A DNA stretch of 64,000 nt from Eledone cirrhosa (taxonomy: Eukaryota). A model generated the notes under the pieces. The model worked only from the letters and a program-made list of their open reading frames with translations, was not told where the DNA came from and searched no databases. A program made the translations under genes and the position numbers. Location of the stretch: the NCBI GenBank assembly GCA_964016885.1, contig OZ024740.1:176266001-176330000 (forward strand). Direction: 5' to 3'. Below, one piece after another: positions 1,885-63,398 of the stretch. Position 1 is the first letter of the stretch. The number at the start of each line of letters is the position of its first letter.

Positions 1885-1929
1885 GTCGCCGCATTAACTG
1901 TCATCCATGGACATTACGGCGTTATAATA
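1885..1929 (+). CDS. Candidate unique 45-nt exon upstream of the array
   Basis: ACTTTTCAG|GTCGCCGCATTAACTGTCATCCATGGACATTACGGCGTTATAATA|GTATGT; relatively GC-rich, multiple of 3, open in phase 1 (xRRINCHPWTLRRYN) and phase 0 (VAALTVIHGHYGVII). Confidence 0.35.
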
Positions 1930-6649: not shown

Positions 6650-6656
6650 TTGCTAT

Positions 6657-6765
6657 CGTGTGTGTGTGTGTGTGTGTATATAGATATGTTTATGTGTGTG
6701 CGTGTGTGTGTATATATATATGTATATGTATATTATTGTTGTTGTTGTCGTTATTATTATTATTG

Positions 6766-6800
<35 letters not shown>

Positions 6801-6910
6801 GTTATTATTATATGTGTATGTATATGTATATGTATGTATGTATGTATATGTATGTATGTGTTTGTATATATATATATGTATGTATGTGTTTGTATATATA
6901 TATATGTATG

Positions 6911-7778: not shown

Positions 7779-7813
7779 TACATTACAATGCGCGAAAGTA
7801 TTACTATAAACAA
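7779..7813 (+). pseudogene. Degenerate 35-nt copy of the B-type micro-exon at the array edge
   Basis: CTCTTAACAG|TACATTACAATGCGCGAAAGTATTACTATAAACAA|GTGATA; homologous, but not a multiple of 3, and the exonic -1 G is lost. Confidence 0.5.
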
Positions 7814-8706: not shown

Positions 8707-8745
8707 TAGATGACAATGAAGCACGAAACTATTACCATACAACAG
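8707..8745 (+). CDS. Divergent B-type 39-nt micro-exon ([13 protein letters not shown] in phase 1)
   Basis: TTCTTATCTATTTACAG|TAGATGACAATGAAGCACGAAACTATTACCATACAACAG|GTGATA; length and splice sites are kept despite many substitutions. Confidence 0.62.
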
Positions 8746-9790
8746 GTGATATGATGGGACATGTTTTATTATATTACTAGCTGGCCCGTCCGGCTGGCGC
8801 CCGGCTACCATTGGCGTGTTCTACGGCATCCATATATATATATATAGCTGACGTACCTAGCTTCGCTTGGATAAACAGACGATAAGCCATCTGTGTATTA
8901 TAGTATTCCTGTTGAAAATATATAGCATAGTATAGTATTACTGTTGAAAATATATAGTATAGTATTACTGCTGAAAATATATAGTATAGTATTACTGTTG
9001 AAAATATATAGTATAGTATGGTATTACTGTTGAAAATATATAGTACAGCATAGTATTACTGTTGCAAATATATAGTACAGTATTACTGTTGAAAATATAT
9101 AGTATAGTATAGTATTACTGTTGAAAATATATAGTATAGTACAATATTACTGTTGAATATATATAGTATAATATTACAGTTGAAAATATATAGTACAGTA
9201 TTACTGTTAAAAATATATAGTATAGTATTACTTTTGAAAATATATAGTATATTATAATATTACTGTTGAAAATATATAGTATAGTATTACTGTTGAAAAT
9301 ATATAGTATAGTATAGTATTAATGTTGAAAATATATAGTATTACTTTTGAAAATATATAGTGTAGTTCAGTATTACTGTTGAAAATATACTGTACAGCAT
9401 TACTGTTGAAAATATGTAGTATAGTATAGTATTAATGTTGAAAATATATAGTACAGTATTACTGTTGAAAATATATAGTATAGTATTACCGTTGAAAATA
9501 TAATGTATAGTATAGTATTACTGTTGAAAGTATAGTATTACTGTTGAAAATATATAGTACAGCATTACTGTTGAAAATATGTAGTATAGTATAGTATTAA
9601 TGTTGAAAATAGTACAGTATTACTGTTGAAAATATATAGTATAGTATTACCGTTGAAAATATAATGTATAGTATAGTATTACTGTTGAAAATATATAGTA
9701 CAGTACAGTATTACTGTTGAAAATATATAGTATAGTATTACTGTTGAAAATATATAGTATAGTATGACTGTTGAATACATATAGTATAGT

Positions 9791-9840
<50 letters not shown>

Positions 9841-15800: not shown

Positions 15801-18800
15801 ACAGAATACGATTATAATATAATTTGTACTATATCCGAAAGATACAACGTGAATGAACAGAAATGCTGCGTGTAAAATGCAAACAAAGTATCACAGAATA
15901 CGATTATAATATAATTTGTACTATATCCGAAAGATACAACGTGAATGAACAGAAATGGTGCGTGTAAAATGCAAACAGTGTGAACTTACTATGAACGCGT
16001 GTGTGCGTATCAGTATATTTGCTTGTTTTAGTAGTAGTAGTAGTAAGCGATCAGCCAGGCGGGTGAGAAATTAGTGACAGACTGGTTTTTCTTGACGAGA
16101 GCTTGTAAATGCGACTTGTCTTGTCTGTATATCACTTCTTTTCTGTCGGGGCGTAAACAACCCCTGTATTTGTAAGGGTTGAAATTAGAAGGATAGATAT
16201 ATCAGCTTTTGTATGTATTCAATACAAACTTTTGATCTCAGAGGTGTTCTACATATAATGTTTTTAATAAAAACATTCAAAATGATCAGTTTGGTGCGTT
16301 TATTCATGAGTGTTTGTATTTGTGTCTGTGGGTAGCGAATGTGTGACGCAGGGTGTTTCTGTGTTTCTGTGCAATTTGCTGCACGCACGTTTTTGCATTG
16401 TATTTGTTGAAGGTTAAATAATGTTGGAACGTCAAGTTTACATTCAAAAAGTCGTTTCAAAATTGACCTTTGAAATAATGTAAATTTATAAAATGTGTTT
16501 AGTATCTCCCAAGGGGTTGGTTTTCTATGCGTAAACAACTCAGAAAGATGGATATATCCTCTGTCAGATGGATATATCCTCTGTCAGGCGTAAACACCTT
16601 TGACCTGTGTTTAGCATCTCCCAAGGGGTTGGTTTGTCGAGCGAAAACAACTTACCACGGCTTGTCCCAGAGGCGGGAAAGCTCAGATTCGGTTTCGAAT
16701 CTTCGCCGCCGTTATACCTTCTACAAATGTAATGCACAAACATGTGTGCAGAAATATACGAAGACAAACAGAAACATACAAATAGCCACAACACAGAAAT
16801 GGATACACACATGCATAAACCCACCAAACTATCGAATTTGTATCATTATATTTCAGTCATGATGATATGTAGAGCACCTCTAAGACTATAGTTTGGTATT
16901 GAATACATACAAAAGCTGATATTATTAGCATCGCTTAAATTAAAGGGTAGAATTAACATCATTTCCCAAATTCAATTAATCAATTAAAGTAAGGACAGCC
17001 GATCAGAACGGGCACAAGTAACAGAAACAATATAATCTCAAGTGTGACTAGATGGGTTCTCAGCAATTATTATCATATAATCAAGAAATATTATTTAAAA
17101 TATACTTGTGTACAATCACTTATTTCATTCATACACCATATTAGGAAACTTCTGTTAGAAATCAGATTTCCTATACTTTAAGTATACAGAAACATTTACG
17201 TTACATTAGATGCTGAAGGTGAAACATTATGTTTAACTCCAAGCAGGTTTGTAATAAGTTGCCAACATATTACTGGTTTTCTTGATATTATCTAAGAAAC
17301 CACACATAGTATATTTTCTAATATATATATTCCTTGGTTCCTTTTTCGTTTACAGAACCACCTACCAACGAACCACGAAACGATTCCCATACAACAGGTA
17401 TATGACGAAACATCTTTCATTATATACCCTGTCATAACTGCTGGCCTTGTGCCAAAAGTAGAAACAATTATATTATATATACCTCTTTAAATACATAATT
17501 CTTTTACATAATATATATGGAAAATTCAAATTTGGGGGCAGAAGGTAGGGTTCAATATCTATATTAGTATATATGTTATATAAAAACAAGAACGTATTTG
17601 GGAGAAGTGTGTTATCTGTATCAATGTAACAACTACATTTTATAAATTTACATTATTTCAAAGGTCAATTTTGAAACAACTTTTTGAATGTAAATTTGAC
17701 GTTTCTATATTGTTTAACTTTCAACAAATGTAATGCAAAATGATGCGTGTAGGAAGTTACACAGAAACACACAAACACCCCGCCTTACATATATGCTACA
17801 CACAGTCACAAATTTCAAACACACATGAATAAACACACCAAACTGCCCATCTTGTATGTTTAATTAAAAACATTATGATATATAGAAGACTTTTGTGACT
17901 AACAATTAGTATTGAATACATACAAAAGCTGATATCTTTAGCGTCTCTGAAATATAACGGCAGAATTAACTTAATTTTCCGAATTCAATTAATCAAGGAA
18001 AGTAAGGTGAGCCGATCAGAACGGACACAAATACCATAGTCAACATAAACTGAAGTGTGGCTAGGAGATGGGTTTTCAGCAACCACTATCATATATACAA
18101 GAAATATTATTTAAAATATACTTGTGCACAATCAGTTATTTCATACATACCCCATAGTAGGAAACCACTGTTTGAAATCAGATTTCATAAACATGAAGTA
18201 TACAGAACGATTTACGTCACATTAGATACTGAAGGTGAGAGGTTATGTTTAACTCTCAGAAAGGTTTATCTAATTTTGGAACGTATTTCTGTTCTTTTTT
18301 AAATGTTACGTATAATTGATTCCAAACGCAATATATTTTCTAAAATATATATTTCTTTATTCTTTTCTATTAACAGTATATGACAACGCACGACGAAACT
18401 ATTATTTTACAACAGGTGATATGATGGAACATGTTATATTTTATTATATACTAGCAGTTTAGCCCGGCGTTGCTCGGGTTTGTTCATTTGCTATGAAAAG
18501 TTACATGCAGGTAAACGTAGCTTGAAAGCGAATAAGCTTATCAATTAAGTGCATAAAGCAGTTGAACCGGTTATTAAAAGTTATGAACCAATTAGCATTT
18601 TGGACAATCAATGATGGGTTAATAATCTTCCAATAGCGAATTTAGCAGACCAAAGTTGCAAGATGGTGGCCCTGATGCCGCTGGGTGTCACATCTGTCCG
18701 CCATTGGTAACCCTACCAGGAAATAGTTTTCCAGACGGCATAGCTCCAACACATCCAACACATGCACCAACATCTATAGCACCTCTTTGTAGATGATATT

Positions 18801-24783: not shown

Positions 24784-24830
<47 letters not shown>

Positions 24831-27800
24831 GCTATCCCCCTCTTTTAGTCTGTCTGTTTCTTTCACTCTCACTCTTTCTCTTTATAACTCACTTACATTA
24901 ATACTAAAGGGTTAAGGTATTGTTCTCAAAATAAATAATATTAAATCTGAGATTTTTATGTTATGTGAGATAAAGCCTTTACCATGAAAATAATATAGTA
25001 TATATAGAGTAATGTAAATGCTAAAGGGTTAATTCCATCAGACCATGTGAGAAAGTTTATAATCACTCACGCACACATACACACTCACGCATGCAAACGC
25101 ACAAAATCTCACACACAGACACGCGCACGTACACACACACACACGCAATAGTTATTCCACTGTCATGTAACTTTGACGCATACAACTCTCAAAAGACGGC
25201 GTCTGTCATCATATCTCTCCCGCCCTATCCCCCTGTTTTAGTCTGTCTGTTTCTTTCACTCTCACTCTTTCTCTCTGTAACTCGTTCACATTTCTCCCCT
25301 CTATCGAAAAACGCTGTTACGAATGGGGAGAAGGAGGAGCCACTTCTTTACTTCGCCTCTCCATTTCTTTCTCTCGCCTCTCACCCCCTCATTATGTACA
25401 GACATTGGTCACTTCACTAATTCGATCCCTAGCTCAGAATAATTTGAATTTTTTTGCTCAAAACACTTCCGGGGCCATACGGGCTACATGTGTAAAGTTT
25501 GCAAAAAAATAACGGTTGGGTACTTCTCGAGTTTTAGGGAAACAGACACACAGACAGACATCCTCTGTTTTATATAGCATAGGCACCCGGCGTTGCCCGG
25601 GAATGACATTTTATTTTAAAGCCCATCTTTGAATGTTGTTTTTGAACGTGAATTAGACGTTTAAAAAATATATATTAAACCGTCTACAAATGTAATGCAC
25701 AAACATGTGTGCAGAAATAGACGAAGATGCACAGAAACACACAAATAGCCGCAACGGAGATATTTATACACATATGCATAAACCAGCCAAACTACCTAAT
25801 TTGTAGCATTCTATTTCAATCATGATGATATATAGAGCATCTCTATGACTATAGTTTGTTATTGAATACATACAAAAGCTGATGATAAAATATGATGATA
25901 TGTAGCGCACCAAAATCATGATGACATGTAGTGCACCTCTAGGAGATGTGTTTTCAGCAATCACTATGATATACTTAAGAAATATTATTCAAAATCTACA
26001 ATCAGTTATTTCCTTCATGCATAATATTACGACACCACTATTAGAAATCAGATTTCATATACATGAAATACACATAACCATTTACGTTACATAAGATACT
26101 GAAGGTGAGACGTTATGTTTTGGATGGCAGTATCGGAAGAGGGTCGGACGCCATGCTTTGTAGCATAGTTACGTCCCTTTACAGTCTGAGATCAAACCCG
26201 CCGAGGTTAACTTTGCCTTTCATCCATACGGGATCGATAAAATAAAGTACCAGTAATGTACTGGATAATTGCTGGCCTTGTGCCTAAAGTAGAAATATTT
26301 ATGTTTAACTCCCAGTTAGGCTTAACTAAGTCTGGCACGTATTACTGGTTTTCTTGATATTATCTATGAAAGTTTACAAGCGCATTATATGTTCTAATAT
26401 ATATAATCCTTTTTTCTTTTTTGTTTACAGAACCTAACGAGGTACCACGAAAAGATTCCCATACAACAGGTGATATGATGAAACATCTTTTATTGTATTA
26501 TATATACATCTTTATATACATAACTCTTTTACATGATATATATGGAAGATGGGAATTAGGTGGCAGAAGGTAGCGTTCAATTTCTAGATCAGTATATATA
26601 TATATGTTATGTAACAACAAGAACGTATTTGGAAGAAGTGTGTTTTCTGTATCAATGTAACAACTATGTTTGATGAATTTATATTATTTCAAAGATCAAT
26701 TTTGAAATCTCTTTTTGAACGTAAACTTGACGTTTCTATATTATTTAACTTTCAACAAGTGTAATGCAAAAATATGTGTGTTAGAAGTTACACAGAAACA
26801 CACAAACACCCGCCTCACATATATGTTACACACAGTCACAAATTTCAAGCACACACGAATAAACACACCAAACTGCCCATTTTGTATGTTTTATTAAAAA
26901 CGTTATGATATATAGAAGAATTTTGTGACTAACAGTTGGTAGAGAATACATACAAAAGCTGATATCTTTAGCGTCTCTGAAATCAAACGGCAGAATTAAA
27001 TTAATTTTCCGAATTCAATTAATCAAGGAAAGTAAGTTCAGCCGATCAGAACGGACACAAATACCCTAGTCAACATAAACTGAAGTGTGGCTAAAAGATG
27101 GGTTTTCAGCAATCACTATCATATATAAAATAAATATTATTTAAAATATACTTGCGCTCAATCAGTTATTTCATACATACCCCATAGTAGGAAACCACTG
27201 TTTGAAATCAGATTTCATAAACATGAAATATACAGAACCATTTACGTCACATTAGATACTGAAGGTGAGAGGTTATGTTTAACTCTCAGAGAGGTTTAAC
27301 TAATTTTGGAACGTATTTCTGTTCTTTTTTAAATGTTACGTATAATCGATTCCAAACGCAATATATTTTCTATAATATATATTTCTTTATTCTTTTCTAT
27401 TAACAGTATATGACAACACACCACGAAGCTATTATTATACCACAGGTGATATGATGGAAAATGTTATATTTTATTATATATACTTCTTTAAATACATAAC
27501 TCTTTACATAATATATATGGAACAATTCGAATACAAAATAGAAAGTAGGGTTCAATAACTCCATGAGTATATATGTTTTATACAAACAAGAATGTATTTG
27601 GGAGTCGTGTGTTTCCTCTACGATTATAGCATCCTCATTTTATAAATTTATTTTATTTTAACGCCCACTTTTGAATCTTGATTTTGAACGTGAATTAGAC
27701 GTTTAAAAGGAATATTAAACCGTCTACAAATTTAATGAGTGCAGAAATATACGAAGATGCACAGAAACTCACAATTGGCCGCAACGGAGATATTTATACA

Positions 27801-45800: not shown

Positions 45801-48800
45801 AGAAAGTAGGGTTCAATAACTCCATGAGTATATATGTTTTATACAAACAAGAATGTATTTGGGAGTCGTGTGTTTCCTCTACGATTATAGCATCCTCATT
45901 TTATAAATTTATTTTATTTTAACGCCTACTTTTGAATGTTGTTTTTGAACGTGAATTAGACGTTTAAAAGGAATATTAAACCGTCTACAAATTTAATGAG
46001 TGCAGAAATATACGAAGATGCACAGAAACTCACAATTGGCCGCAACGGAGATATTTATACAAATATGCATAAACCAGCCAAACTACATTATTTGTAGCAA
46101 TGTATTTCAATCATGATGATATATAGAGCAGCTCTAAGACTATAGTTTGTTATTGAATACATACAAAAGCTGATGATAAAATATAATGATATGTAGCGCA
46201 CCCCAATCATGAATACATGTAGTGCACCTCTAGGAGATGTGTTTTCAGCAATCACTATGATATACTTAAGAAATATTATTCAAAATCTACAACCAGTTAT
46301 TTTATTCATACACCATATTAGGAAACCACTGTTAGAAATCATATTTCATATACATGAAATACACATAACCATTTACGTTACATAAGATACTGAAGGTGAG
46401 ACGTTATGTTTAACTCCCAGTTAGGCTTAAATAAGTCTGGCACGTATTACTGATTTTCTTGATATTATCTATGAAAGTTTACAAGCGCATTATATGTTCT
46501 AATATATATATTTCTTTGTTCTTTTTTGTTTACAGAACCTAGCGAAGTACCAGGAAAAGATTTCCATACAACAGGTGATATTATGAAACATCTTTTACTG
46601 TATTGTATATACTTCTTTATATACATAACTCTTTTACATGATATATATGGAAAATGGGAATTAGGGAGCAGAAGGTAGCGTTCAATTTCTAGATGAGTAT
46701 ATATATATATATATATGTTATGTAACAACAAGAACGTATTTGGAAGAAGTGTGTTTTCTGTATCAATGTAAGAACTATGCTTGATGAATTTATATTATTT
46801 TAAAGATCAATTTTGAAACCTCTATTTGATCGTAAAATTGACGTTTCTATATTATTTAACTTTAAACAAATGTAATGCAAAAATATGTGTGTTAGAAGTT
46901 ACACAGAAACACACAAACACCCGCCTCACATATATGCTACACACAGTCACAAATTTCAAGCTAAAGTGTGGCTAAAAGATGGGTTTTTAGTATATCATGT
47001 ATATGAAATCATATTTCATATACATGAAATACACATAACCATTTACGTTACATAAGATACTGAAGGTGAGACGCTATGTTTAACTCCCAGTTAGGCTTAA
47101 ATATGTCTGGCACCTATTACTGATTTTCTTGATATTATCTATGAAAGTTTACAAGCGCATTATATGTTCTAATATATATATTTCTTTGTTCTTTTTTGTT
47201 TACAGAACCTAACGAGGTACCACGAAAAGATTCCCATACAACAGGTGATATGATGAAACATCTTTTATTGTATTATATATACTTCTTTATATACATAACT
47301 CTTTTACATGATATATATGGAAGATGGGAATTAGGTGGTAGAAGGTAGCGTTCAATCTCTAGATGAGTATATATATATATATATGTTATGTAACAACAAG
47401 AACGTATTTGGAAGAAATGTGTTTTTTGTATCAATGTAAGAACCATGCTTGATGAATTTATATTATTTTAAAGATCAATTTTGAAACCTCTTTTTGAACG
47501 TAAATTTGACGTTTCTATATTATTTAACTTTAAACAAATGTAATGCAAAAGCATATTATCTATGAATGTTTTCAAGCGCATTATATGTTCTAATATATAT
47601 TTATTCCTCTGTTCTTTTTTGTTTACAGAACCTAACGAAGTACCAGGAAAAGATTCCCATACAACAGGTGATATGATGGACGATCTTTTATTGTATTATA
47701 CATACTTCTTTCTAGACATAACTCTTTTACATGATATATATGGAAAATGGGAATTAGGGAGCAGAAGGTAGCGTTCAATTTCTAGATGAGTATATATATA
47801 TATGTTATGTAACAACAAGAACGTATTGGGAAGAAGTGTGTTTTCTGTATCAATGTAAGAACCATGCTTGATGAATTTATATTATTTTAAAGATCAATTT
47901 TGAAACCTCTATTTGATCGTAAAATTGACGTTTCTATATTATTTAACTTTAAACAAATGTAATGCAAAAATATGTGTGTTAGAAGTTACACAGAAACACA
48001 CAAACACCCGCCTCACATATATGCTACACACAGTCACAAATTTCAAGCTAAAGTGTGGCTAAAAGATGGGTTTTTAGTATATCATGTATATGAAATCAGA
48101 TTTCATATACATGAAATACACATAACCATTTACGTTACATAAGATACTGAAGGTGAGACGCTATGTTTAACTCCCAGTTAGGCTTAAATATGTCTGGCAC
48201 CTATTACTGATTTTCTTGATATTATCTATGAAAGTTTACAAGCGCATTATATGTTCTAATATATATATTTCTTTGTTCTTTTTTGTTTACAGAACCTAGC
48301 GAAGTACCAGGAAAAGATTCCCATACAACAGGTGATATGATGAAACATCTTTTACTGTATTATATATACTTCTTTATATACATAACTCTTTTACATGATA
48401 TATATGGAAAATGGGAATTAGGGAGCAGAAGGTAGCGTTCAATTTCTAGATGAGTATATATATATATATATATGCTATGTAACAACAAGAACGTATTTGG
48501 GAGAAGTGTGTTTTCTGTATCAATGTAACAACCATGCTTGATGAATTTATATTATTTTAAAGATCAATTTTGAAACCTCTTTTTGAACGTAAATTTGACG
48601 TTTCTATATTATTTAAATTTAAACAAATGTAATGCAAAAGCATGCGTATAGGAAGTTACACAGAAACACACAAACACCAGCCTCACATATATGTTACACA
48701 CAGTCACACATTTCAAGTACACACGAATAAACACACCAAACTGCCCATTTTGTATGTTTTATTAAAAACATTATGATATATAGAAGAATTTTGTGACTAA

Positions 48801-51800
48801 CAGTTGGTAGAGAATACATACAAAAGCTGATATCTTTAGCGTCTCTGAAATCAAACGGCAGAATTAAATTAATTTTCCGAATTCAATTAATCAAGGAAAG
48901 TAAGTTCAGCCGATCAGAACGGACACAAATACCCTAGTCAACATAAACTGAAGTGTGGCTAAAAGATGGGTTTTCAGCAATCACTATCATATATAAAATA
49001 AATATTATTTAAAATATACTTGCGCTCAATCAGTTATTTCATACATACCCCATAGTAGGAAACCACTGTTTGAAATCAGATTTCATAAACATGAAATATA
49101 CAGAACCATTTACGTCACATTAGATACTGAAGGTGAGAGGTTATGTTTAACTCTCAGAGAGGTTTAACTAATTTTGGAACGTATTACTGTTCTTTTTTAA
49201 ATGTTACGTATAATCGATTCCAAACGCAATATATTTTCTATAATATATATTTCTTTATTCTTTTCTATTAACAGTATATGACAACACACCAGGAAGCTAT
49301 TATTATACCACAGGTGATATGATGGAAAATGTTATATTTTATTATATATACTTCTTTAAATACATAACTCTTTACATAATATATATGGAACAATTCGAAT
49401 ACAAAATAGAAAGTAGGGTTCAATAACTCCATGAGTATATATGTTTTATACAAACAAGAATGTATTTGGGAGTCGTGTGTTTCCTCTACGATTATAGCAT
49501 CCTCATTTTATAAATTTATTTTATTTTAACGCCTACTTTTGAATGTTGTTTTTGAACGTGAATTAGACGTTTAAAAGGAATATTAAACCGTCTACAAATT
49601 TAATGAGTGCAGAAATATACGAAGATGCACAGAAACTCACAATTGGCCGCAACGGAGATATTTATACAAATATGCATAAACCAGCCAAACTACATTATTT
49701 GTAGCAATGTATTTCAATCATGATGATATATAGAGCAGCTCTAAGACTATAGTTTGTTATTGAATACATACAAAAGCTGATGATAAAATATGATGATATG
49801 TAGCGCACCCCAATCATGAATACATGTAGTGCACCTCTAGGAGATGTGTTTTCAGCAATCACTATGATATACTTAAGAAATATTATTCAAAATCTACAAC
49901 CAGTTATTTTATTCATACACCATATTAGGAAACCACTGTTAGAAATCATATTTCATATACATGAAATACACATAACCATTTACGTTACATAAGATACTGA
50001 AGGTGAGACGTTATGTTTAACTCCCAGTTAGGCTTAAATAAGTCTGGCACGTATTACTGATTTTCTTGATATTATCTATGAAAGTTTACAAGCGCATTAT
50101 ATGTTCTAATATATATATTTCTTTGTTCTTTTTTGTTTACAGAACCTAGCGAAGTACCAGGAAAAGATTTCCATACAACAGGTGATATTATGAAACATCT
50201 TTTACTGTATTGTATATACTTCTTTATATACATAACTCTTTTACATGATATATATGGAAAATGGGAATTAGGGAGCAGAAGGTAGCGTTCAATTTCTAGA
50301 TGAGTATATATATATATATATATGTTATGTAACAACAAGAACGTATTTGGAAGAAGTGTGTTTTCTGTATCAATGTAAGAACTATGCTTGATGAATTTAT
50401 ATTATTTTAAAGATCAATTTTGAAACCTCTATTTGATCGTAAAATTGACGTTTCTATATTATTTAACTTTAAACAAATGTAATGCAAAAATATGTGTGTT
50501 AGAAGTTACACAGAAACACACAAACACCCGCCTCACATATATGCTACACACAGTCACAAATTTCAAGCTAAAGTGTGGCTAAAAGATGGGTTTTTAGTAT
50601 ATCATGTATATGAAATCATATTTCATATACATGAAATACACATAACCATTTACGTTACATAAGATACTGAAGGTGAGACGCTATGTTTAACTCCCAGTTA
50701 GGCTTAAATATGTCTGGCACCTATTACTGATTTTCTTGATATTATCTATGAAAGTTTACAAGCGCATTATATGTTCTAATATATATATTTCTTTGTTCTT
50801 TTTTGTTTACAGAACCTAACGAGGTACCACGAAAAGATTCCCATACAACAGGTGATATGATGAAACATCTTTTATTGTATTATATATACTTCTTTATATA
50901 CATAACTCTTTTACATGATATATATGGAAGATGGGAATTAGGTGGTAGAAGGTAGCGTTCAATCTCTAGATGAGTATATATATATATATATGTTATGTAA
51001 CAACAAGAACGTATTTGGAAGAAATGTGTTTTTTGTATCAATGTAAGAACCATGCTTGATGAATTTATATTATTTTAAAGATCAATTTTGAAACCTCTTT
51101 TTGAACGTAAATTTGACGTTTCTATATTATTTAACTTTAAACAAATGTAATGCAAAAGCATATTATCTATGAATGTTTTCAAGCGCATTATATGTTCTAA
51201 TATATATTTATTCCTCTGTTCTTTTTTGTTTACAGAACCTAACGAAGTACCAGGAAAAGATTCCCATACAACAGGTGATATGATGGACGATCTTTTATTG
51301 TATTATACATACTTCTTTCTAGACATAACTCTTTTACATGATATATATGGAAAATTGGAATTAGGTGGCAGAAGGTAGCGTCCAATTTCTAGATGAGTAT
51401 ATATATATATATGTTATTTAACAACAAGAACTTATTTGGAAGAAGTATGTTTTCTGTATCAATGTAACAACCATGCTTGATGAATTTATATTATTTCAAA
51501 GATCAATTTTGAATCCTCTTTTTGAACGTAAACTTGACGTTTCAATATTATTTAACTTTAAACAAATGTAATGCAAAAGCATGCGTGTAGGAACTTACAC
51601 AGAAACACACAAACTCCCGCCTCACATATATGCTACACCCAGTCACAAATTTCAAGTACACACGAATAAACACACCAAACTGCCCATTTTGTATGTCTTA
51701 TTAAAAACATTATGATATATAGAAGAATTTTGTGACTAACAGTTGGTAGAGAATACATACAAAAGCTGATATCTTTAGCGTCTCTGAAATCAAACGGCAG

Positions 51801-54800
51801 AATTAAATTAATTTTCCGAAGTCAATTAATCAAGGAAAGTAAGTTCAGCAGATCAGAACGGACACAAATACCCTAGTCAACATTAACTGAAGTGTGGCTA
51901 AAAGATGGGTTTTCAGCAATCACTATCATATATAAAATAAATATTATTAAAATATACTTGTGCTCAATGAGTTATTTCATACATACCCCATAGTAGGAAA
52001 CCACTGTTTGAAATCAGATTTCATAAACATGAAATATACAGAACCTTTTACGTCACATTAGATACTGAAGGTGAAAGGTTATGTTTAACTCTCAGAGAGG
52101 TTTAACTAATTTTGGAACGTATTTCTGTTCTTTTTTAAATGTTACGTATAATCGATTCCAAACGCAATATATTTTCTATAATATATATTTCTTTATTCTT
52201 TTCTATTAACAGTATATGACAACGCACCACGAAGCTATTATTATACAACAGGTGATATGATGGAACATGTTATATTTTATTATATATACTACTTTAAATA
52301 CATAACTCTTTACATAATATATATGGAACAATTCGAATAAATAATAGAAAGTAGGGTTCAATAACTCCATGAGTATATATGTTATATACAAACAAGAACG
52401 TATTTGGGAGTCGTGTGTTTCCTCAACGATTATAGCATCCTCATTTTATAAATTTATTTTATTTTAACGCCCATTTTTGAATGTTGTTTTTGAACGTGAA
52501 TTAGACGTTTAAAAGAAATATTAAACCGTCTACAAATTTAATGCACAAACATGTGTGCAGAAATAGACGAAGATGCACAGAGACTCACAAATGGCCGCAA
52601 CGGAGATATTTATACAAATATGCATAAACTAGCCAAACTACCTAAATTGTAGCAATTTATTTCAATCATGATGATATATAGAGCAGCTCTAAGACTATAG
52701 TTTGTTATTGAATACATACAAAAGCTGATGATAAAATATGATGATATGTAGCGCACCAAAATCATGATGACATGTAGTGCACCTCTAGGAGATGTGTTTT
52801 CAGCAATCACTATGATATACTTAAGAAATATTATTCAAAATCTACAACCTGTTATTTTATTCATACACCATATTAGGAAACCACTGTTAGAAATCAGATT
52901 TCATATACATGAAATACACATAACCATTTACGTTACATAAGATACTGAAGGTGAGACGTTATGTTTAACTCCCAGTTAGGCTTAAATAAGTCTGGAACGT
53001 ATTACTGGTTTTCTTCATATTATCTATGAAAGTTTACAAGCGCATTATATGTTCTAATATATATATTTCTTTGTTCTTTTTTGTTTACAGAACCTAACGA
53101 AGTACCAGGAAAAGATTCCCATACAACAGGTGATATGATGGACGATCTTTTATTGTATTATATATACTTCTTTATATACATAACTCTTTTATATGATATA
53201 TATGGAAAATAGGAATTAGGTGGCAGAAGGTAGCGTTCAATTTCTAGATGAGTATATATATATATATATGTTATGTAACAACAAGAACGTATTTGGAAGA
53301 AGTGTGTTTTCTGTATCAATGTAAAACGAATGCTTGATGAATTTATATTATTTTAAAGATCAATTTTGAAACCTCTTTTTGAACGTAAATTTGCCGTTTC
53401 TATATTATTTAACTTTAAACAAATGTAATGCAAAAGCATGCGTGTAGGAAGTTACACAGAAACACACAAACACCCGCCTCACATATATGCTACACACAGT
53501 CATAAATTTCAAGCACACACGAATAAACACACCAAACTGCCCATTTTGTATGTTTTATTAAAAACATTATGATATATAGAAGAATTTTGTGACTAACAGT
53601 TGGTAGAGAATACATACAAAAGCTGATATCTTTAGCGTCTCTGAAATCAAACGTCAGAATTAAATTAATTTTCCGAATTCAATTAATCAAGGAAAGTAAG
53701 TTCAGCCGATCACAACGGACACAAATACCCTAGTCAACATAAACTGAAGTGTGGCTAGAAGATGGGTTTTCAGCAATCACTATCATATATAAAATAAATA
53801 TTATTTAAAATATACTTGCGCTCAATCAGTTATTTCATACATACCCCATAGTAGGAAACCACTGTTTGAAATCAGATTTCATAAACATGAAATATACAGA
53901 ACCATTTACGTCACATTATATACTGAAGGTGAGAGGTTATGTTTAACTCTCAGAGAGGTTTAACTAATTTTGGAACGTATTTCTGTTCTTTTTTAAATGT
54001 TACGTATAATCGATTCCAAACGCAATATATTTTCTATAATATATATTTCTTTATTCTTTTCTATTAACAGTATATGACAACGCACCACAAAGCTATTATT
54101 ATACCACAGGTGATATGATGGAACATGTTATATTTTATTATATATACTTCTTTAAATACATAACTCTTTACATATTATATATGGAACAATTCGAATAAAA
54201 AATAGAAAGTAGGGTTCAATAACTCCATGAGTATATATGTTTTATACAAACAAAAATGTATTTGAGAGACGTGTGTTTCCTCTACGATTATAGCATCCTC
54301 ATTTTATAAATTTATTTTATTTTAACGTCCATTTTTGAATGTTTTTGAACGTGAATTAGACGTTTAAAAGAAATATTAAACCGTCTCCAAATTTAATGCA
54401 CAAACATGTGTGCAGAAATAGACGAAGATGCACAGAAACTCACAAATGGCAGCAACGGAGATATTTATACACATATGCATAAACCAGCCAAACTACCTAA
54501 TTGGTAGCAATTTATTTCAATTATGATGATATATAGTGCAGCTCTAAGACTATAGTTTGTTATTGAATATATACAAAAGCTGATGATAAAATATGATGAT
54601 ATGTAGCGCACCAAAATCATGATGACATGTAGTGCACCTCTAGGAGATGTGTTTTCAGCAATCACTATGATATACTTAAGAAATATTATTCAAAATCCAA
54701 CAACCTGTTATTTTATTCATACACCATATTAGGAAACAACTGTTAGAAATCAGATTTCATATACATGAAATACACATAACCATTTACGTTACATAAGATA

Positions 54801-57800
54801 CTGAAGGTGAGACGTTATGTTTAACTCCCAGTTAGGCTTAAATAAGTCTGGCACGTATTAATGGTTTTCTTGATATTATCTATGAAAGTTTACAAGCGCA
54901 TTATATGTTCTAATATATATTTATTCCTCTGTTCTTTTTTGTTTACAGAACCTAGCAAGGTACCGGGAAAAGATTCCCATACAACAGGTGATATGATGGA
55001 CGATCTTTTATTGTATTATATATACTTCTGTCTATACATAACTCTTTTACATGATGTATATGGAAAATGTGAATTAGGTGGCAGAAGGTAGCGTTCAATT
55101 TCTAGATGAGTATATATATACATATGTTATGTAACAACAAGAACTTATTTGGAAGAAGTGTGTTTTCTGTATCAATGTAACAACCATGCTTGATGAATTT
55201 ATATTATTTCAAAGATCAATTTTGAAACCTCTTTTTGAACATAAACTTGACGTTTCTATATTATTTAACTTTCAACAAGTGTAATGCAAAAATATGTGTG
55301 TTAGAAGTTACACAGAAACACACAAACACCCGCCTCACATATATGCTACACACAGTCACAAATTTCAAGCACACACGAATAAACACACCAAACAGCCCAT
55401 TTTGTATGTTTTTATTAAAAACATTATGATATATATAAGAACTTTGTGACTAACAGTTAGTATAGAATACATACAAAAGCTGATAGCTTTAGCGTCTCTG
55501 AAATCAAAAGGCAGAATTAACTTAATATTCCGAATTCAATTAATCAAGGAAAGTAAGTTCAGCCGATCAGAACGGACACAAATACCCTAGTCAACATAAA
55601 CTGAAGTGTGGCTAAAAGATGGGTTTTCAGCAATCACTATCATATATAAAATAAATATTATTTAAAATATACTTGTGCTCAATCAGTTATTTCATACATA
55701 CCCCATAGTAGGAAACCACTGTTTGAAATCAGATTTCATAAACATGAAATATACAGAACCATTTACGTCACATTAGATACTGAAGGTGAAAGGTTATGTT
55801 TAACTCTCAGAGAGGTTTAACTAATTTTGGAACGTATTTCTGTTCTTTTTTAAATGTTACGTATAATCGATTCCAAACGCAATATATTTTCTATAATATA
55901 TATTTCTTTATTCTTTTCTATTAACAGTATATGACAACGCACCACGAAGCTATTATTATACAACAGGTGATATGATGGAACATGTTATATTTTATTATAT
56001 ATACTACTTTAAATACATAACTCTTTACATAATATATATGGAACAATTCGAATAAATAATAGAAAGTAGGGTTCAATAACTCCATGAGTATATATGTTAT
56101 ATACAAACAAGAACGTATTTGGGAGTCGTGTGTTTCCTCAACGATTATAGCATCCTCATTTTATAAATTTATTTTATTTTAACGCCCATTTTTGAATGTT
56201 GTTTTTGAACGTGAATTAGACGTTTAAAAGAAATATTAAACCGTCTACAAATTTAATGCACAAACATGTGTGCAGAAATAAACGAAGATGCACAGAAACT
56301 CACAAATGGCCGCAACGGAGATATTTATACAAATATGCATAAACTAGCCAAACTACCTAATTTGTAGCAATTTATTTCAATCATGATGATATATAGAGCA
56401 GCTCTAAGACTATAGTTTGTTATTGAATACATACAAAAGCTGATGATAAAATATGATGATATGTAGCGCACCAAAATCATGATGACATGTAGTGCACCTC
56501 TAGGAGATGTGTTTTCAGCAATCACTATGATATACTTAAGAAATATTATTCAAAATCTACAACCTGTTATTTTATTCATACACCATATTAGGAAACCACT
56601 GTTAGAAATCAGATTTCATATACATGAAATACACATAACCATTTACGTTACATAAGATACTGAAGGTGAGACGTTATGTTTATCTCCCAGTTAGGCTTAA
56701 ATAAGTCTGGAACGTATTACTGGTTTTCTTCATATTATCTATGAAAGTTTACAAGCGCATTATATGTCCTAATATATATATTTCTTTGTTCTTTTTTGTT
56801 TACAGAACCTAACGAAGTACCAGGAAAAGATTCCCATACAACAGGTGATATGATGGACGATCTTTTATTGTATTATATATACTTCTTTATATACATAACT
56901 CTTTTACATGATATATATGGAAAATAGGAATTAGGTGGCAGAAGGTAGCGTTCAATTTCTAGATGAGTATATATATATATATATGTTATGTAACAACAAG
57001 AACGTATTTGGAAGAAGTGTGTTTTCTGTATCAATGTAAAACGAATGCTTGATGAATTTATATTATTTTAAAGATCAATTTTGAAACCTCTTTTTGAACG
57101 TAAATTTGCCGTTTCTATATTATTTAACTTTAAACAAATGTAATGCAAAAGCATGCGTGTAGGAAGTTACACAGAAACACACAAACACCCGCCTCACATA
57201 TATGCTACACACAGTCATAAATTTCAAGCACACACGAATAAACACACCAAACTGCCCATTTTGTATGTTTTATTAAAAACATTATGATATATAGAAGAAT
57301 TTTGTGACTAACAGTTGGTAGAGAATACATACAAAAGCTGATATCTTTAGCGTCTCTGAAATCAAACGTCAGAATTAAATTAATTTTCCGAATTCAATTA
57401 ATCAAGGAAAGTAAGTTCAGCCGATCACAACGGACACAAATAACCTAGTCAACATAAACTGAAGTGTGGCTAGAAGATGGGTTTTCAGCAATCACTATCA
57501 TATATAAAATAAATATTATTTAAAATATACTTGCGCTCAATCAGTTATTTCATACATACCCCATAGTAGGAAACCACTGTTTGAAATCAGATTTCATAAA
57601 CATGAAATATACAGAACCATTTACGTCACATTAGATACTGAAGGTGAGAGGTTATGTTTAACTCTCAGAGAGGTTTAACTAATTTTGGAACGTATTTCTG
57701 TTCTTTTTTAAATGTTACGTATAATCGATTCCAAACGCAATATATTTTCTATAATATATATTTCTTTATTCTTTTCTATTAACAGTATATGACAACGCAC

Positions 57801-60800
57801 CACAAAGCTATTATTATACCACAGGTGATATGATGGAACATGTTATATTTTATTATATATACTTCTTTAAATACATAACTCTTTACATATTATATATGGA
57901 ACAATTCGAATAAAAAATAGAAAGTAGGGTTCAATAACTCTATGAGTATATATGTTTTATACAAACAAAAATGTATTTGGGAGACGTGTGTTTCCTCTAC
58001 GATTATAGCATCCTCATTTTATAAATTTATTTTATTTTAACGCCCATTTTTGAATGTTTTTGAACGTGAATTAGACGTTTAAAAGAAATATTAAACCGTC
58101 TCCAAATTTAATGCACAAACATGTGTGCAGAAATAGACGAAGATGCACAGAAACTCACAAATGGCAGCAACGGAGATATTTATACAAATATGCATAAACC
58201 AGCCAAACTACCTAATTGGTAGCAATTTATTTCAATCATGATGATATATAGTGCAGCTCTAAGACTATAGTTTGTTATTGAATATATACAAAAGCTGATG
58301 ATAAAATATGATGATATGTAGCGCACCAAAATCATGATGACATGTAGTGCACCTCTAGGAGATGTGTTTTCAGCAATCACTATGATATACTTAAGAAATA
58401 TTATTCAAAATCCAACAACCTGTTATTTTATTCATACACCATATTAGGAAACAACTGTTAGAAATCAGATTTCATATACATGAAATACACATAACTATTT
58501 ACGTTACATAAGATACTGAAGGTGAGACGTTATGTTTAACTCCCAGTTAGGCTTAAATAAGTCTGGCACGTATTACTGGTTTTCTTCATATTATCTATGA
58601 AAGTTTACAAGCGCATTATATGTTCTAATATATATTTATTCCTCTGTTCTTTTTTGTTTACAGAACCTAGCAAGGTACCGGGAAAAGATTCCCATACAAC
58701 AGGTGATATGATGGACGATCTTTTATTGTATTATATATACTTCTGTCTATACATAACTCTTTTACATGATGTATATGGAAAATGTGAATTAGGTGGCAGA
58801 AGGTAGCGTTCAATTTCTAGATGAGTATATATATACATATGTTATGTAACAACAAGAACTTATTTGGAAGAAGTGTGTTTTCTGTATCAATGTAACAACC
58901 ATGCTTGATGAATTTATATTATTTCAAAGATCAATTTTGAAACCTCTTTTTGAACATAAACTTGACGTTTCTATATTATTTAACTTTCAACAAGTGTAAT
59001 GGAAAAATGTGTGTTAGAAGTTACACAGAAACACACAAAACACCCGCCTCACATATATGCTACACACAGTCACAAATTTCAAGCACACACGAATAAACAC
59101 ACCAAACAGCCCATTTTGTATGTTTTTATTAAAAACATTATGATATATATAAGAACTTTGTGACTAACAGTTAGTATAGAATACATATAAAAGCTGATAG
59201 CTTTAGCGTCTCTGAAATCAAACGGCAGAATTAACTTAATATTCCGAATTCAATTAATCAAGGAAAGTAAGTTCAGCCGATCAGAACGGACACAAATACC
59301 CTAGTCAACATAAACTGAAGTGTGGCTAAAAGATGGGTTTTTAGAAATCACTATCATATATAAAATAAATATTATTTAAAATATAGTTGTGCACAATCAG
59401 TTATTTCATACATACCCCATAGTAGGAAACCACTGTTTGAAATCAGATTTCATAAACATGAAATATACAGAACCATTTACGTCACATTAGATACTGAAGG
59501 TGAGAGGTTATGTTTAACTCTCAGAGAGGTTTAACTAATTTTGGAACGTATTTCTGTTCTTTTTTAAATGTTACGTATAATCGATTCCAAACGCAATATA
59601 TTTTCTATAATATATATTTCTTTATTCTTTTCTATTAACAGTATATGACAACGCACCACAAAGCTATTATTATACCACAGGTGATATGATGGAACATGTT
59701 ATATTTTATTATATATACTTCTTTAAATACATAACTCTTTACATATTATATATGGAACAATTCGAATAAAAAATAGAATGTAGGGTTCAATAACTCCATG
59801 AGTATATATGTTTTATACAAACAAGAATGTATTTGGGAGACGTGTGTTTCCTCTACGATTATAGCATCCTCATTTTATAAATTTATTTTACGTTAACGCC
59901 CATTTTTGAATGTTGTTTTTGAACGTGAATTAGACGTTTAAAAGAAATATTAAACCGTCTCCAAATTTAATGCACAAACATGTGTGCAGAAATAGACGAA
60001 GATGCACAGAAACTCACAAATGGCAGCAACGGAGATATTTATACAAATATGCATAAACCAGCCAAACTACCTAATTGGTAGCAATTTATTTCAATCATGA
60101 TGATATATAGTGCAGCTCTAAGACTATAGTTTGTTATTGAATATATACAAAAGCTGATGATAAAATATGATGATATGTAGCGCACCAAAATCATGATGAC
60201 ATGTAGTGCACCTCTAGGAGATGTGTTTTCAGCAATCACTATGATATACTTAAGAAATATTATTCAAAATCCAACAACCTGTTATTTTATTCATACACCA
60301 TATTAGGAAACCACTGTTAGAAATCAGATTTCATATACATGAAATACATATAACCATTTACGTTACATAAGATACTGAAGGTGAGACGTTATGTTTAACT
60401 CCCAGTTAGGCTTAAATAAGTCTGGCACGTATTACTGGTTTTCTTGATATTATCTATGAAAGTTTACAAGCGCATTATATGTTCTAATATATATTTATTC
60501 CTCTGTTCTTTTTTGTTTACAGAACCTAGCAAGGTACCGGGAAAAGATTCCCATACAACAGGTGATATGATGGACGATCTTTTATTGTATTATATATACT
60601 TCTTTCTATACATAACTCTTTTACATGATGTATATGGAAAATGTGAATTAGGTGGCAGAAGGTAGCGTTCAATTTCTAGATGAGTATATATATACATATG
60701 TTATGTAACAACAAGAACTTATTTGGAAGAAGTGTGTTTTCTGTATCAATGTAACAACCATGCTTGATGAATTTATATTATTTCAAAGATCAATTTTGAA

Positions 60801-63398
60801 ACCTCTTTTTGAACATAAACTTGACGTTTCTATATTATTTAACTTTCAACAAGTGTAATGCAAAAATATGTGTGTTAGAAGTTACACAGAAACACACAAA
60901 CACCCGCCTCACATATATGCTACACACAGTCACAAATTTCAAGCACACACGAATAAACACACCAAACAGCCCATTTTGTATGTTTTTATTAAAAACATTA
61001 TGATATATATAAGAACTTTGTGACTAACAGTTAGTATAGAATACATATAAAAGCTGATAGCTTTAGCGTCTCTGAAATCAAACGGCAGAATTAACTTAAT
61101 ATTCCGAATTCAATTAATCAAGGAAAGTAAGTTCAGCCGATCAGAACGGACACAAATACCCTAGTCAACATAAACTGAAGTGTGGCTAAAAGATGGGTTT
61201 TTAGAAATCACTATCATATATAAAATAAATATTATTTAAAATATAGTTGTGCACAATCAGTTATTTCATACATACCCCATAGTAGGAAACCACTGTTTGA
61301 AATCAGATTTCATAAACATGAAATATACAGAACCATTTACGTCACATTAGATACTGAAGGTGAAAGGTTATGTTTAACTCTCAGAGAGGTTTGACTAATT
61401 TTGGAACGTATTTCTGTTCTTTTTTAAATGTTACGTATAATCGATTCCAAACGCAATATATTTTCTATAATATATATTTCTTTATTCTTTTCTATTAACA
61501 GTATATGACAACGCACCACGAAGCTATTATTATACAACAGGTGATATGATGGAACATGTTATATTTTATTATATATACTACTTTAAATACATAACTCTTT
61601 ACATAATATATATGGAACAATTCGAATAAATAATAGAAAGTAGGGTTCAATAACTCCATGAGTATATATGTTATATACAAACAAGAACGTATTTGGGAGT
61701 CGTGTGTTTCCTCAACGATTATAGCATCCTCATTTTATAAATTTATTTTATTTTAACGCCCATTTTTGAATGTTGTTTTTGAACGTGAATTAGACGTTTA
61801 AAAGAAATATTAAACCGTCTACAAATTTAATGCACAAACATGTGTGCAGAAATATACGAAGATGCACAGAAACTCACAAATGGCTGCAACGGAGATATTT
61901 ATACAAATATGCATAAACCAGCCAAACTACCTAATTTGTAGCATTTTATTTCAATCATGATGATATATAGAGCAGCTCTAAGACTATAGTTTGTTATTGA
62001 ATACATACAAAAGCTGATGATAAAATATGATGATATGTAGCGCACCAAAATCATGATGACATGTAGTGCACCTCTAGGAGATGTGTTTTCAGCAATCACT
62101 ATGATATACTTAAGAAATATTATTCAAAATCTACAACCTGTTATTTTATTCATACACCATATTAGGAAACCACTGTTAGAAATCATATTTCATATACATG
62201 AAATACACATAAACATTTAGGTTACATAAGTTACTGAAGGTGAGACGCTATGTTTAACTCCCAGTTAGGCTTAAATAAGTCTGGCACGTATTACTGGTTT
62301 TCTTGATATTATCTATGAAAGTTTACAAGCGCATTATATGTTCTAATATATATATTTCTTTGTTCTTTTTTGTTTACAGAACCTAGCGAGGTACCACGAA
62401 AAGATTCCCATACAACAGGTGATATGATGAAACATCTTTTATTGTATTATATATACTTCTTTATATACATAACTCTTTTACATGATATATATTGAAAATT
62501 GGAATTAGGTGGCAGAAGGTAGCGTTCAATTTCTAGATGATTATATATATATATATGTTATGTAACAACAATTACTTATTTGGAAGAAGTGTGTTTTCTG
62601 TATCAATGTAACAACCATGCTTGATGAATTTATATTATTTCAAAGATCAATTTTGAAACCTCTTTTTGAACGTAAACTTGACGTTTCTATATTATTTAAC
62701 TTTCAACAAATGTAATGCAAAAACATGCGTGTAGGAAGTTACACAGAAACACACTAACACCCCGCCTCACATATATGCTACACACAGTCACAAATTTCAA
62801 ACACACACGAATAAACACACCAAACTGCCCATTTATTATGTTTTTATTAAAAACATTATGATATATAAAAGACCTTTGTGACTAACAGTTAGTATTGAAT
62901 ACATACAAAAGCTGATATCTTTAGCGTCTCTGAAATCAAACGACAGAATTAACTTAATATTTCGAATTCAATTAATCAAGGCAAGTAAGGTCAGCCGATC
63001 AGAACGGACACAAATACCCTAGTCAACGTAAACTGAAGTGTGGCTAGGAGATGGGTTTTCAGCAATCACTATCATATATAAAATAAATATTATTTAAAAT
63101 ATACTTGTGCACAATCAGTTATTTCATACATACCACATAGTAGGAAACCACCGTTTGAAATCAGAGTTCATAAACATGAAATATACATAACCATTTACGT
63201 CACATTAGATACTGAAGGTGAGAGGTTATGTTTAACTCTCAGAAAGGTTTAACTAATTTTGGAACGTATTTCTGTTCTTTTTTAAATGTTACGTATAATC
63301 GATTCCAAACGCAATATATTTTCTAAAATATATATTTCTTTATTCTTTTCTATTAACAGTATATGACAACGCACCACGAAGCTATTATTATACAACAG
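8707..63398 (+). CDS. Putative multi-micro-exon gene (partial): 48 symmetric exons (47 of 39 nt, one of 42 nt) encoding a Thr/Pro/Tyr-rich 13-aa repeat region
   Basis: Each unit has a pyrimidine tract + ACAG acceptor, a 39-nt exon ending (C/A)ACAG and a GT donor (GTGATA, once GTATAT). All lengths are multiples of 3 and all copies are stop-free in phase 1. A-type units show a CTAAT branch-point-like motif ~33 nt upstream. No start or stop exon was identified in the window. Confidence 0.72.
8897..9795. repeat. Minisatellite TATTACTGTTGAAAATATA with variable (TAGTA)n, ~27-32 bp unit, inside the Helitron
   Basis: About 30 directly visible copies. Confidence 0.95.
10264..10379. repeat. Inverted repeat with ~55-bp arms
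   Basis: ATAGGAAAATGTTTAACCCCTACGGCAGAGCTCAAGCCGATTCGACGGCTGTTTC pairs with GAAATAGCCGTCGAAACGGCTTGACCTCTGCCGTCGGGCTTAAACATTTTCCTAT. Confidence 0.88.
10970..11204 (-). repeat. Truncated 3' LTR of the Gypsy element
   Basis: Starts TATAACGGCGGCGAAG just after the polypurine tract; lacks the part matching 15589-16165. Confidence 0.8.
15589..16716 (-). repeat. 5' LTR of the Gypsy element (TATAACGG...CCGTTACA)
   Basis: Abuts the primer-binding site; 16501-16716 matches 11024-11204; has an internal ~92-bp duplication (15794/15886). Confidence 0.85.
17356..17397 (+). CDS. Divergent A-type 42-nt micro-exon ([14 protein letters not shown] in phase 1)
   Basis: CTTTTTCGTTTACAG|AACCACCTACCAACGAACCACGAAACGATTCCCATACAACAG|GTATAT; exactly one codon longer than the 39-nt consensus. 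Confidence 0.62.
18377..18415 (+). CDS. B-type 39-nt micro-exon ([13 protein letters not shown] in phase 1)
   Basis: TTCTATTAACAG|TATATGACAACGCACGACGAAACTATTATTTTACAACAG|GTGATA. Confidence 0.65.
19870..24388 (-). pseudogene. Helitron Rep/Helicase pseudogene
   Basis: [42 protein letters not shown] motif [26 protein letters not shown], degenerate Walker [53 protein letters not shown]. Broken into about 10 pieces. N-terminal 69-bp (23-aa) Arg/Ala-rich repeats at 24051/24120. Confidence 0.95.
24590..24828. repeat. (CA)n and (CT)n microsatellites in the Helitron 5' region
   Basis: Directly visible. Confidence 0.9.
26121..26298 (+). mobile_element. SINE (resembles abundant octopus SINEs) with an 8-bp target-site duplication
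   Basis: Absent from sister monomers; flanked by TTATGTTT at 26113-26120 and 26299-26306. Its tail GCTGGCCTTGTGCC(T/A)AAAGTAGAAA also occurs at ~9985-10045 and ~17427-17472. Confidence 0.85.
26431..62418 (+). CDS. A-type 39-nt micro-exons (29 copies), phase-1 peptide EP(S/N)(E/K)VP(G/R)KD(S/F)HTT
   Basis: Context TTTTTTGTTTACAG|AACCTAGCGAAGTACCAGGAAAAGATTCCCATACAACAG|GTGATA. Exon starts: 26431, 28275, 28939, 29613, 31459, 32123, 32793, 34639, 35299, 37145, 37809, 39657, 40321, 42171, 42838, 44686, 46536, 47206, 47629, 48293, 50143, 50813, 51236, 53091, 54949, 56806, 58664, 60523, 62380. Confidence 0.72.
27407..63398 (+). CDS. B-type 39-nt micro-exons (16 copies), phase-1 peptide VYDN(T/A)P(R/G/Q)(S/N)YYYTT
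   Basis: Context TTCTTTATTCTTTTCTATTAACAG|TATATGACAACACACCAGGAAGCTATTATTATACCACAG|GTGATA. Exon starts: 27407, 30591, 33771, 36276, 38789, 41303, 43818, 45668, 49275, 52213, 54071, 55928, 57786, 59642, 61502, 63360. Confidence 0.7.

Follow-up and report, generated by a model that had tools for sequence, protein, structure and literature searches.

Does a satellite-like tandem array in the genome of the octopod Eledone cirrhosa conceal a protein-coding gene? The question arises from a 64,000-nt stretch of contig C1 (C1:176266001-176330000 of the 3.0-Gb genome; hereafter the window), in which repeat units each carry a putative exon of about 39 nt between splice signals. Flanks of 250 kb upstream and 100 kb downstream were also read, and positions throughout are extended window coordinates (contig position minus 176266000). 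It is highly probable that the locus holds a real gene and, with only slightly less confidence, that the array is the middle of this one protein-coding gene as modelled below, most array exons being used. The predicted gene runs on the plus strand from -76188 to 115091 (C1:176189812-176381091), spans 191 kb with about 2% coding, and encloses the whole window. A preliminary description had already proposed a large, mostly intronic gene here, and that proposal is now supported by a model running from signal exon to stop, by selection on stops and splice signals, by a paralogue of the same design, and by the molluscan identity of the genome.

Predicted exons within the repeat units

Segments of the form ACAG-36nt-CAG|GT occur 47 times in the window, against a mean of 0.08 (maximum 1) in 100 block shuffles, which bears out the acceptor, 39-nt segment and donor first reported for each unit. 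A fuzzy donor search recovered 49 units, all on the plus strand and none on the minus strand: 47 of 39 nt, the intact 42-nt unit at 17356-17397 that had been singled out as a +3-nt length variant, and a frameshifted 35-nt unit at 7779. The 48 exon-shaped units originally listed for the window (47 of 39 nt and one of 42 nt) are real, although that list missed the 49th unit at 7779-7813 and the exons at 968-1006 and 1885-1929. When these 48 are joined in silico, each ends in G and phase 1 stays free of stops over 1,875 nt, or 625 codons. The earlier estimate that about 5% of the array is coding suits the dense part (about 4.7% of 26.4-63.4 kb) and is too high for the whole of 8707-63398, where the exon share is 3.4%. 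Types A and B are indeed diverged yet equal in length and splice positions, with exons 62% identical and flanks more alike, at 76-100%. The features of the window that belong to the gene are as follows.

968..1006, plus strand: module exon F (39 nt, one cysteine, phase 1-1), one of six copies in the gene
1885..1929, plus strand: module exon R (45 nt, Cys-x2-Trp, phase 1-1), one of six copies, all at the locus
7779..7813, plus strand: dead repeat unit of 35 nt with a frameshift and loss of the donor -1 G
8707..8745, plus strand: repeat exon, B-like, 39 nt, at the array edge
17356..17397, plus strand: repeat exon, A-like, 42 nt (+3 nt)
18377..18415, plus strand: repeat exon, B-like, 39 nt
26431..63398, plus strand: satellite-like array of 45 exons of 39 nt, types A and B, continuing to 89674 beyond the window

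Within 26431..63398 there is one exon per 0.4-1.0-kb unit, with higher-order periods of about 1.85, 2.5, 3.2 and 3.6 kb. Across the array as a whole, introns measure 350-1,200 nt, apart from one longer intron with a long interspersed element (LINE) inside. The repeat family reaches far outside the window, comprising 91 related units from -49.6 to +96.7 kb and an additional fragment at 89591 that has been fused by deletion. Its upstream copies are strongly diverged, His/Tyr/Arg-rich and nearly all of 39 nt (one of 66 nt). Genome searches with the R exon (6 matches from 6 candidates) and with the repeat (40 scored matches of 82 candidates) found matches only here, so the locus is single. No retrocopy was seen in the genome searches with R and with two single-copy exons, N60 and W42, which matched only this locus (6, 1 and 1 matches, respectively), and Rfam returned no matches.

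Beyond the window, the gene model comprises the following features.

-76188..-76103, plus strand: first coding exon, with ATG at -76163, a 20-residue signal-like hydrophobic leader and a phase-1 donor
-73369..-73328, plus strand: W42, a 42-nt exon
-68516..-68457, plus strand: N60, a 60-nt exon
-49595 to -1544, plus strand: diverged repeat units, 17 in all with splice damage in 4, together with module exons
64238 to 89674, plus strand: 23 further array units (three acceptor-less), with a LINE at about 75-80 kb
90697 to 108264, plus strand: a G-F-R module; two repeat units, the one intact and the other dead; another F-R pair; an exon of 39 nt
114922..114947, plus strand: 26-nt exon, phase 1-to-0
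115050..115091, plus strand: terminal exon with TAA stop, polyA-like hexamers following from 115444

The cysteine module consists of three phase 1-1 exons, G (36 nt), F (39 nt) and R (45 nt), present in six copies each and interleaved with the upstream repeat copies; F and R contribute one Cys each. Phase 1 is the sole frame open across all exon classes. When all stop-free exons of 3n length with AG and GT are joined, the open reading frame (ORF) ends at 184 aa because two joins between neighbouring exons make a TGA. Dropping exon -31535 extends it to 352 aa, and dropping both -31535 and -4311 yields a single ORF of 1,393 aa that reaches the terminal stop through 105 exons (signal exon, 103 internal exons and terminal exon), 87 of them of 39 nt. 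Ninety-five percent of the coding nucleotides lie in phase 1-1 exons of 45 nt or less; exons no longer than 36 nt contribute only 5%. Exon -4311 is probably skipped in splicing because its donor is weakened: among 83 such repeat exons, it alone combines the loss of the -1 G with a donor that lacks +5 G. The acceptor of exon -31535 is weak, and this exon lacks F/R partners. The proposal that any exon can join any other in frame stands for the G-ending repeat exons and fails for T-ending ones, where 290 of the 5,356 possible ordered exon pairs create a junction stop, two of them between neighbours. A separate signal-like segment at -85249 was rejected, as it is part of a dispersed repeat (1,150 candidates) and would form a stop when joined to N60.

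Selection on frame and splice signals

Classed by splice signals alone, all 82 units with AG and G|GT are in frame and stop-free, whereas three of the nine splice-damaged units are not; counted as distinct sequences, the ratio of intact to broken is 34/0 against 5/3 (Fisher P=0.005). Changes were then placed on one tree for each of six exon sets, built from 82 distinct units and their flanks and leaving aside -43967 with its lost donor, the fused unit 89636 and the repeat units that are not of 39 nt. On these trees no new stop arises in the coding frame, against 8 and 10 in the two remaining sense frames and 4, 7 and 2 in the antisense frames. The coding-frame expectation is 12.7 raw and about 8 after intron-control scaling (P about 3e-4), the latter being fairer because the same model over-predicts stops in introns. 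In each of the six exon sets, change at sites next to the splice junctions is slower than deeper in the intron, by a factor of 1.5 to about 9, and the synonymous share of exon changes is 0.14 against 0.23 expected (P=0.0025). Slow splice flanks, the lack of new stops and freely changing exon bodies together point to selection that keeps splicing and an open frame, not amino acids; diversifying selection is possible.

Several observations weigh against the gene reading or limit its strength. In introns the stop model predicts too many stops (144, where 93 are seen), a shortage of stops also marks one antisense frame (2 vs 10.7), and the stop test restricted to the young array has little power and does not reach significance (0 vs 2.1 expected). 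Exon bodies change at about intron speed, with no depletion of non-synonymous changes (144 against 125 expected); synonymous changes number 24 against 38 expected. The copies are related rather than independent, and the parsimony counts ignore gene conversion. On the side of the gene model, the repeat donor GTGATA lacks a +5 G, and the single-copy exons at the 5' and 3' ends were chosen by motif scans. The TGA codons created by the joins after -31535 and after -4311 are a real blemish, requiring either some skipping or the making of short forms, and exon -31535 has a normal donor.

Growth of the array would have proceeded by unequal crossing-over, with exon-plus-intron units of about 1 kb being gained and lost; because every repeat exon is phase 1-1 and G-ending, gains, losses and skips would be neutral for the frame. 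Units that lose a splice signal would fall out of use and decay, while transposons would insert in the introns. Sub-arrays with distinct periods and diverged edges are consistent with unequal crossing-over.

Predicted product, rival readings and known systems

The predicted product has up to about 1,390 aa (162 kDa) and 15 Cys, and consists almost entirely of repeats. Its N-terminal third is cationic (isoelectric point, pI, 10.5), combining His/Tyr/Arg repeats with amphipathic-helix/Cys-loop modules; the middle, acidic at pI 5.0, is made up of Thr/Pro/Tyr repeats over about 880 aa, and the C-terminus is short and basic. The array-encoded part of this prediction contains 17% T, 12% P and 9% S. 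Judged from composition only, and given a gene, there is about an even chance that the product is a secreted, disordered, O-glycosylated material protein of mucus, an adhesive, or an egg or spermatophore coat; in such a role, length, charge and composition would outweigh exact sequence.

Three sequencing runs (one sample, one study) cover the introns and show no GT..AG joint among the 15 joints displayed out of 20; as they behave as DNA, they are uninformative on expression or copy number. An RNA index search gave no RNA match, a weak result with a query that is mostly intron. No protein relatives emerged from the read-through of the 66-nt exon (4 candidates) or from the signal-exon alignment (327 candidates), Pfam gave 0 families for all three exon read-through queries, with the spliced product not searched, and the ESM Atlas gave no usable match; these blanks are weak because the queries were single exons padded with intron. 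A profile of the 45-nt exon produced one match, to nine residues of an unrelated repeat protein (E 8.8e-4), which was rejected. In the literature covered, supplements and subscription journals excluded, there was no report of such a cephalopod gene, and no match for four peptide motifs.

The main alternative for the product, though an unlikely one, is a polyprotein or a defence or reproductive effector, in which processing at basic pairs would free cationic His/Tyr/Arg peptides and amphipathic Cys-loop peptides, and exon skipping and diversifying selection would generate a variable pool of products as in the micro-exon genes (MEGs) of schistosomes. RR, RK and KK pairs do occur in the upstream exons; four N-terminal modules carry a net charge of +6 to +7 with a hydrophobic moment of 0.63-0.74, against a protein-wide median of 0.28; and the low synonymous share fits, as do the high dN/dS values reported for MEGs (PMC4350168). 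However, two thirds of the protein are an acidic Thr/Pro repeat with almost no basic pairs, the synonymous deficit could equally reflect exonic splicing signals or model bias, and the padded single-exon searches returned no family match.

Slightly less plausible is that the gene is real and the young A/B array mostly its passenger, a satellite-like amplification of an exon-bearing intronic unit whose copies are mostly skipped or without effect. The array-only stop test and the near-intronic exon rate would suit such an origin, as would the three B units near the 3' end that lack an acceptor, a form that has itself been duplicated. Yet splice flanks are conserved within the array, with 1 change in 33 sites for B against 0.28 per site deeper in the intron, and 0.36 against 0.80 for A, and 65 of the 68 array units are intact.

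That the whole locus is a recently dead gene, with splice signals and open frames as relics, is very improbable: splice damage in nine of the 91 repeat units, stops at two joins and the many transposon insertions would suit it, but the damage affects only interchangeable units, and the signal, W42, N60, 26-nt and terminal exons together with 12/12 F/R exons are intact, unlike a dead signal-exon copy at C1:153.18 Mb. A non-coding satellite whose monomer carries AG...GT by chance would explain the higher-order periods and homogenised monomers, but can be set aside almost entirely, given a stop shortage specific to one sense frame, unrelated exon classes that share one phase in order from signal to stop, confinement to one locus, and a paralogue with different repeats and the same design.

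In the polymorphic mucins of Schistosoma mansoni (SmPoMuc), a 27-bp exon sits in each tandem repeat of about 1 kb, and concerted evolution homogenises introns while exons differ, with two intermingling repeat types that are hard to assemble (PMC2576457). The likeness lies in one repeat exon per exon-plus-intron unit and in A and B exons that are less alike than their flanks. In contrast, a SmPoMuc gene has 15 exons and no more than about 20 genomic repeats, compared with 91 units and 39-nt exons here, and the octopod gene adds Cys modules nested as a higher-order repeat in a free-living cephalopod host. The two are set apart by exon size and layout as described, with no direct alignment, and no sequence link was detected.

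Schistosome MEGs encode a signal peptide, have 10-20 exons, mostly of 15 bp, and reportedly occur in flatworms only (PMC10526429); alternative splicing is demonstrated, introns are transposon-rich and amino acids change fast (PMC10526429, PMC4350168). Coding sequence mostly in very small symmetric exons, fast residue change and transposon-rich introns are common to both, and the 20-residue hydrophobic leader seen here and in the paralogue may be a counterpart of the MEG signal peptide, whereas the octopod gene has about 105 exons, mostly of 39 nt and tandem copies of each other, with splicing that is predicted. The likeness to micro-exon genes put forward in the preliminary description holds for the very small symmetric exons; 39 nt exceeds typical schistosome micro-exons, qualifying under a limit of 51 nt (PMC4317164) and failing under one of 30 nt (PMC7821500). 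SmPoMuc appears the closer parallel; the octopod gene is like both in layout and a member of neither family.

Similar exon-plus-intron tandem repeats with turnover by unequal crossing-over are described for Coccidioides SOWgp and modular spider silk genes (via PMC2576457), from other kingdoms or phyla and likened here by description, without sequence comparison. Among cephalopods, histidine-rich beak proteins, suckerins and SepECPs are likewise lineage-specific, secreted and His/Tyr-rich or cationic (PMC9068888, PMC4500399). Beak proteins and suckerins are reported to form multi-gene clusters absent from O. bimaculoides (PMC9068888), and the SepECP egg-case proteins have 50-55 Cys and no repeats (PMC4500399), against 15 Cys and almost nothing but repeats in the octopod protein.

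Paralogues, neighbouring elements and meaning

The signal exon has two further copies on C1. One, 23 Mb away at 153.24 Mb (C1:153240500-153430300), keeps the ATG, a signal-like leader and the donor, looks intact, and is followed by phase-1 mini-exon arrays of its own: three exons of 57 nt, 15 of 45 nt in units of 2-2.4 kb (15/15 intact) and about ten of 42 nt, with further exons of 30-69 nt and Cys-bearing exons near 153.43 Mb. Its internal exons gave no nhmmer match to those of the present gene, although its 45-nt exon resembles the single-copy W42 by eye. Taken by itself, the paralogue does not reach significance in the stop test (0 vs 1.5). The last of its exons to be identified contain six Cys, ending in C-x3-C-x2-C, a spacing reminiscent of ShKT domains; its stop exon was not found. 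The other copy (C1:153182791-153182947, minus strand) is dead, having lost ATG, frame and donor, and shows no downstream exon similarity in about 93 kb; it faces the paralogue in head-to-head orientation across about 57 kb. With non-matching arrays behind a common signal exon, the two genes appear to have expanded different mini-exons separately.

The introns of the gene hold remains of LINEs, long terminal repeat (LTR) retrotransposons and Helitrons. In the window, these include a LINE-type element with a reverse transcriptase (RT) domain (3884-6905; a 94% copy lies at -95 kb), a degenerate LTR retrotransposon on the minus strand (about 11000-16700; gag-like DUF7041, RT, integrase) in the intron between 8745 and 17356, and Helitron remains on the minus strand (about 18450-25550; Helitron_like_N, PIF1) in the intron after 18415, alongside a 27-bp minisatellite of about 31 copies (8899-9796). 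A Helitron-related element lies near -28 to -24 kb. Farther upstream are a long single-frame G-protein-coupled receptor ORF (-151135..-150134, minus strand; Pfam 7TM_GPCR_Srw, one relative at 67% identity) and, at -193807..-186636, a stop-free tandem repeat of 5 kb, rich in Thr and Pro (1,741 codons, plus strand; other frames also open), followed by a His/Pro-rich repeat, which may be a mucin exon or a minisatellite.

MEGs belong to a platyhelminth lineage, whereas the haemocyanin of this genome is of mollusc type and closest to cephalopod chains. A search for mollusc haemocyanin gave 39 matches from 43 candidates, with gene copies at C1:173.75-173.91 Mb and C26:21.93-22.02 Mb; the three C1 copies lie about 2.3 Mb from the locus and show seven units each, which we take to be the octopod type. 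One functional unit scores 659 bits against 4yd9_C, 650 against 1js8_A and 460 against 8tnv_A, presumably squid, octopus and gastropod haemocyanin, respectively.

Altogether, the locus most likely presents a SmPoMuc/MEG-like layout, known from parasitic flatworms, in an unknown protein family. The DNA, which would be masked as satellite, probably encodes a secreted protein of 160 kDa for which the padded single-exon searches found no database relative. Tandem repeats with AG-3n-GT segments, combined with frame-specific stop loss, offer a simple screen for further unannotated genes. Two paralogues with independently expanded mini-exons point to a general cephalopod route to new secreted proteins. 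More tentatively, they could belong to an octopod micro-exon-gene-like system, a family of giant genes for secreted proteins with a common signal exon, where expansion into a satellite-like array would be open to every internal phase-1 exon, and skipping among about 100 interchangeable exons, with junction stops as length switches, would supply a large, fast-evolving pool of variants for microbial defence or reproduction. If such skipping were regulated, a free-living mollusc would share a design that is said to be confined to parasitic flatworms.

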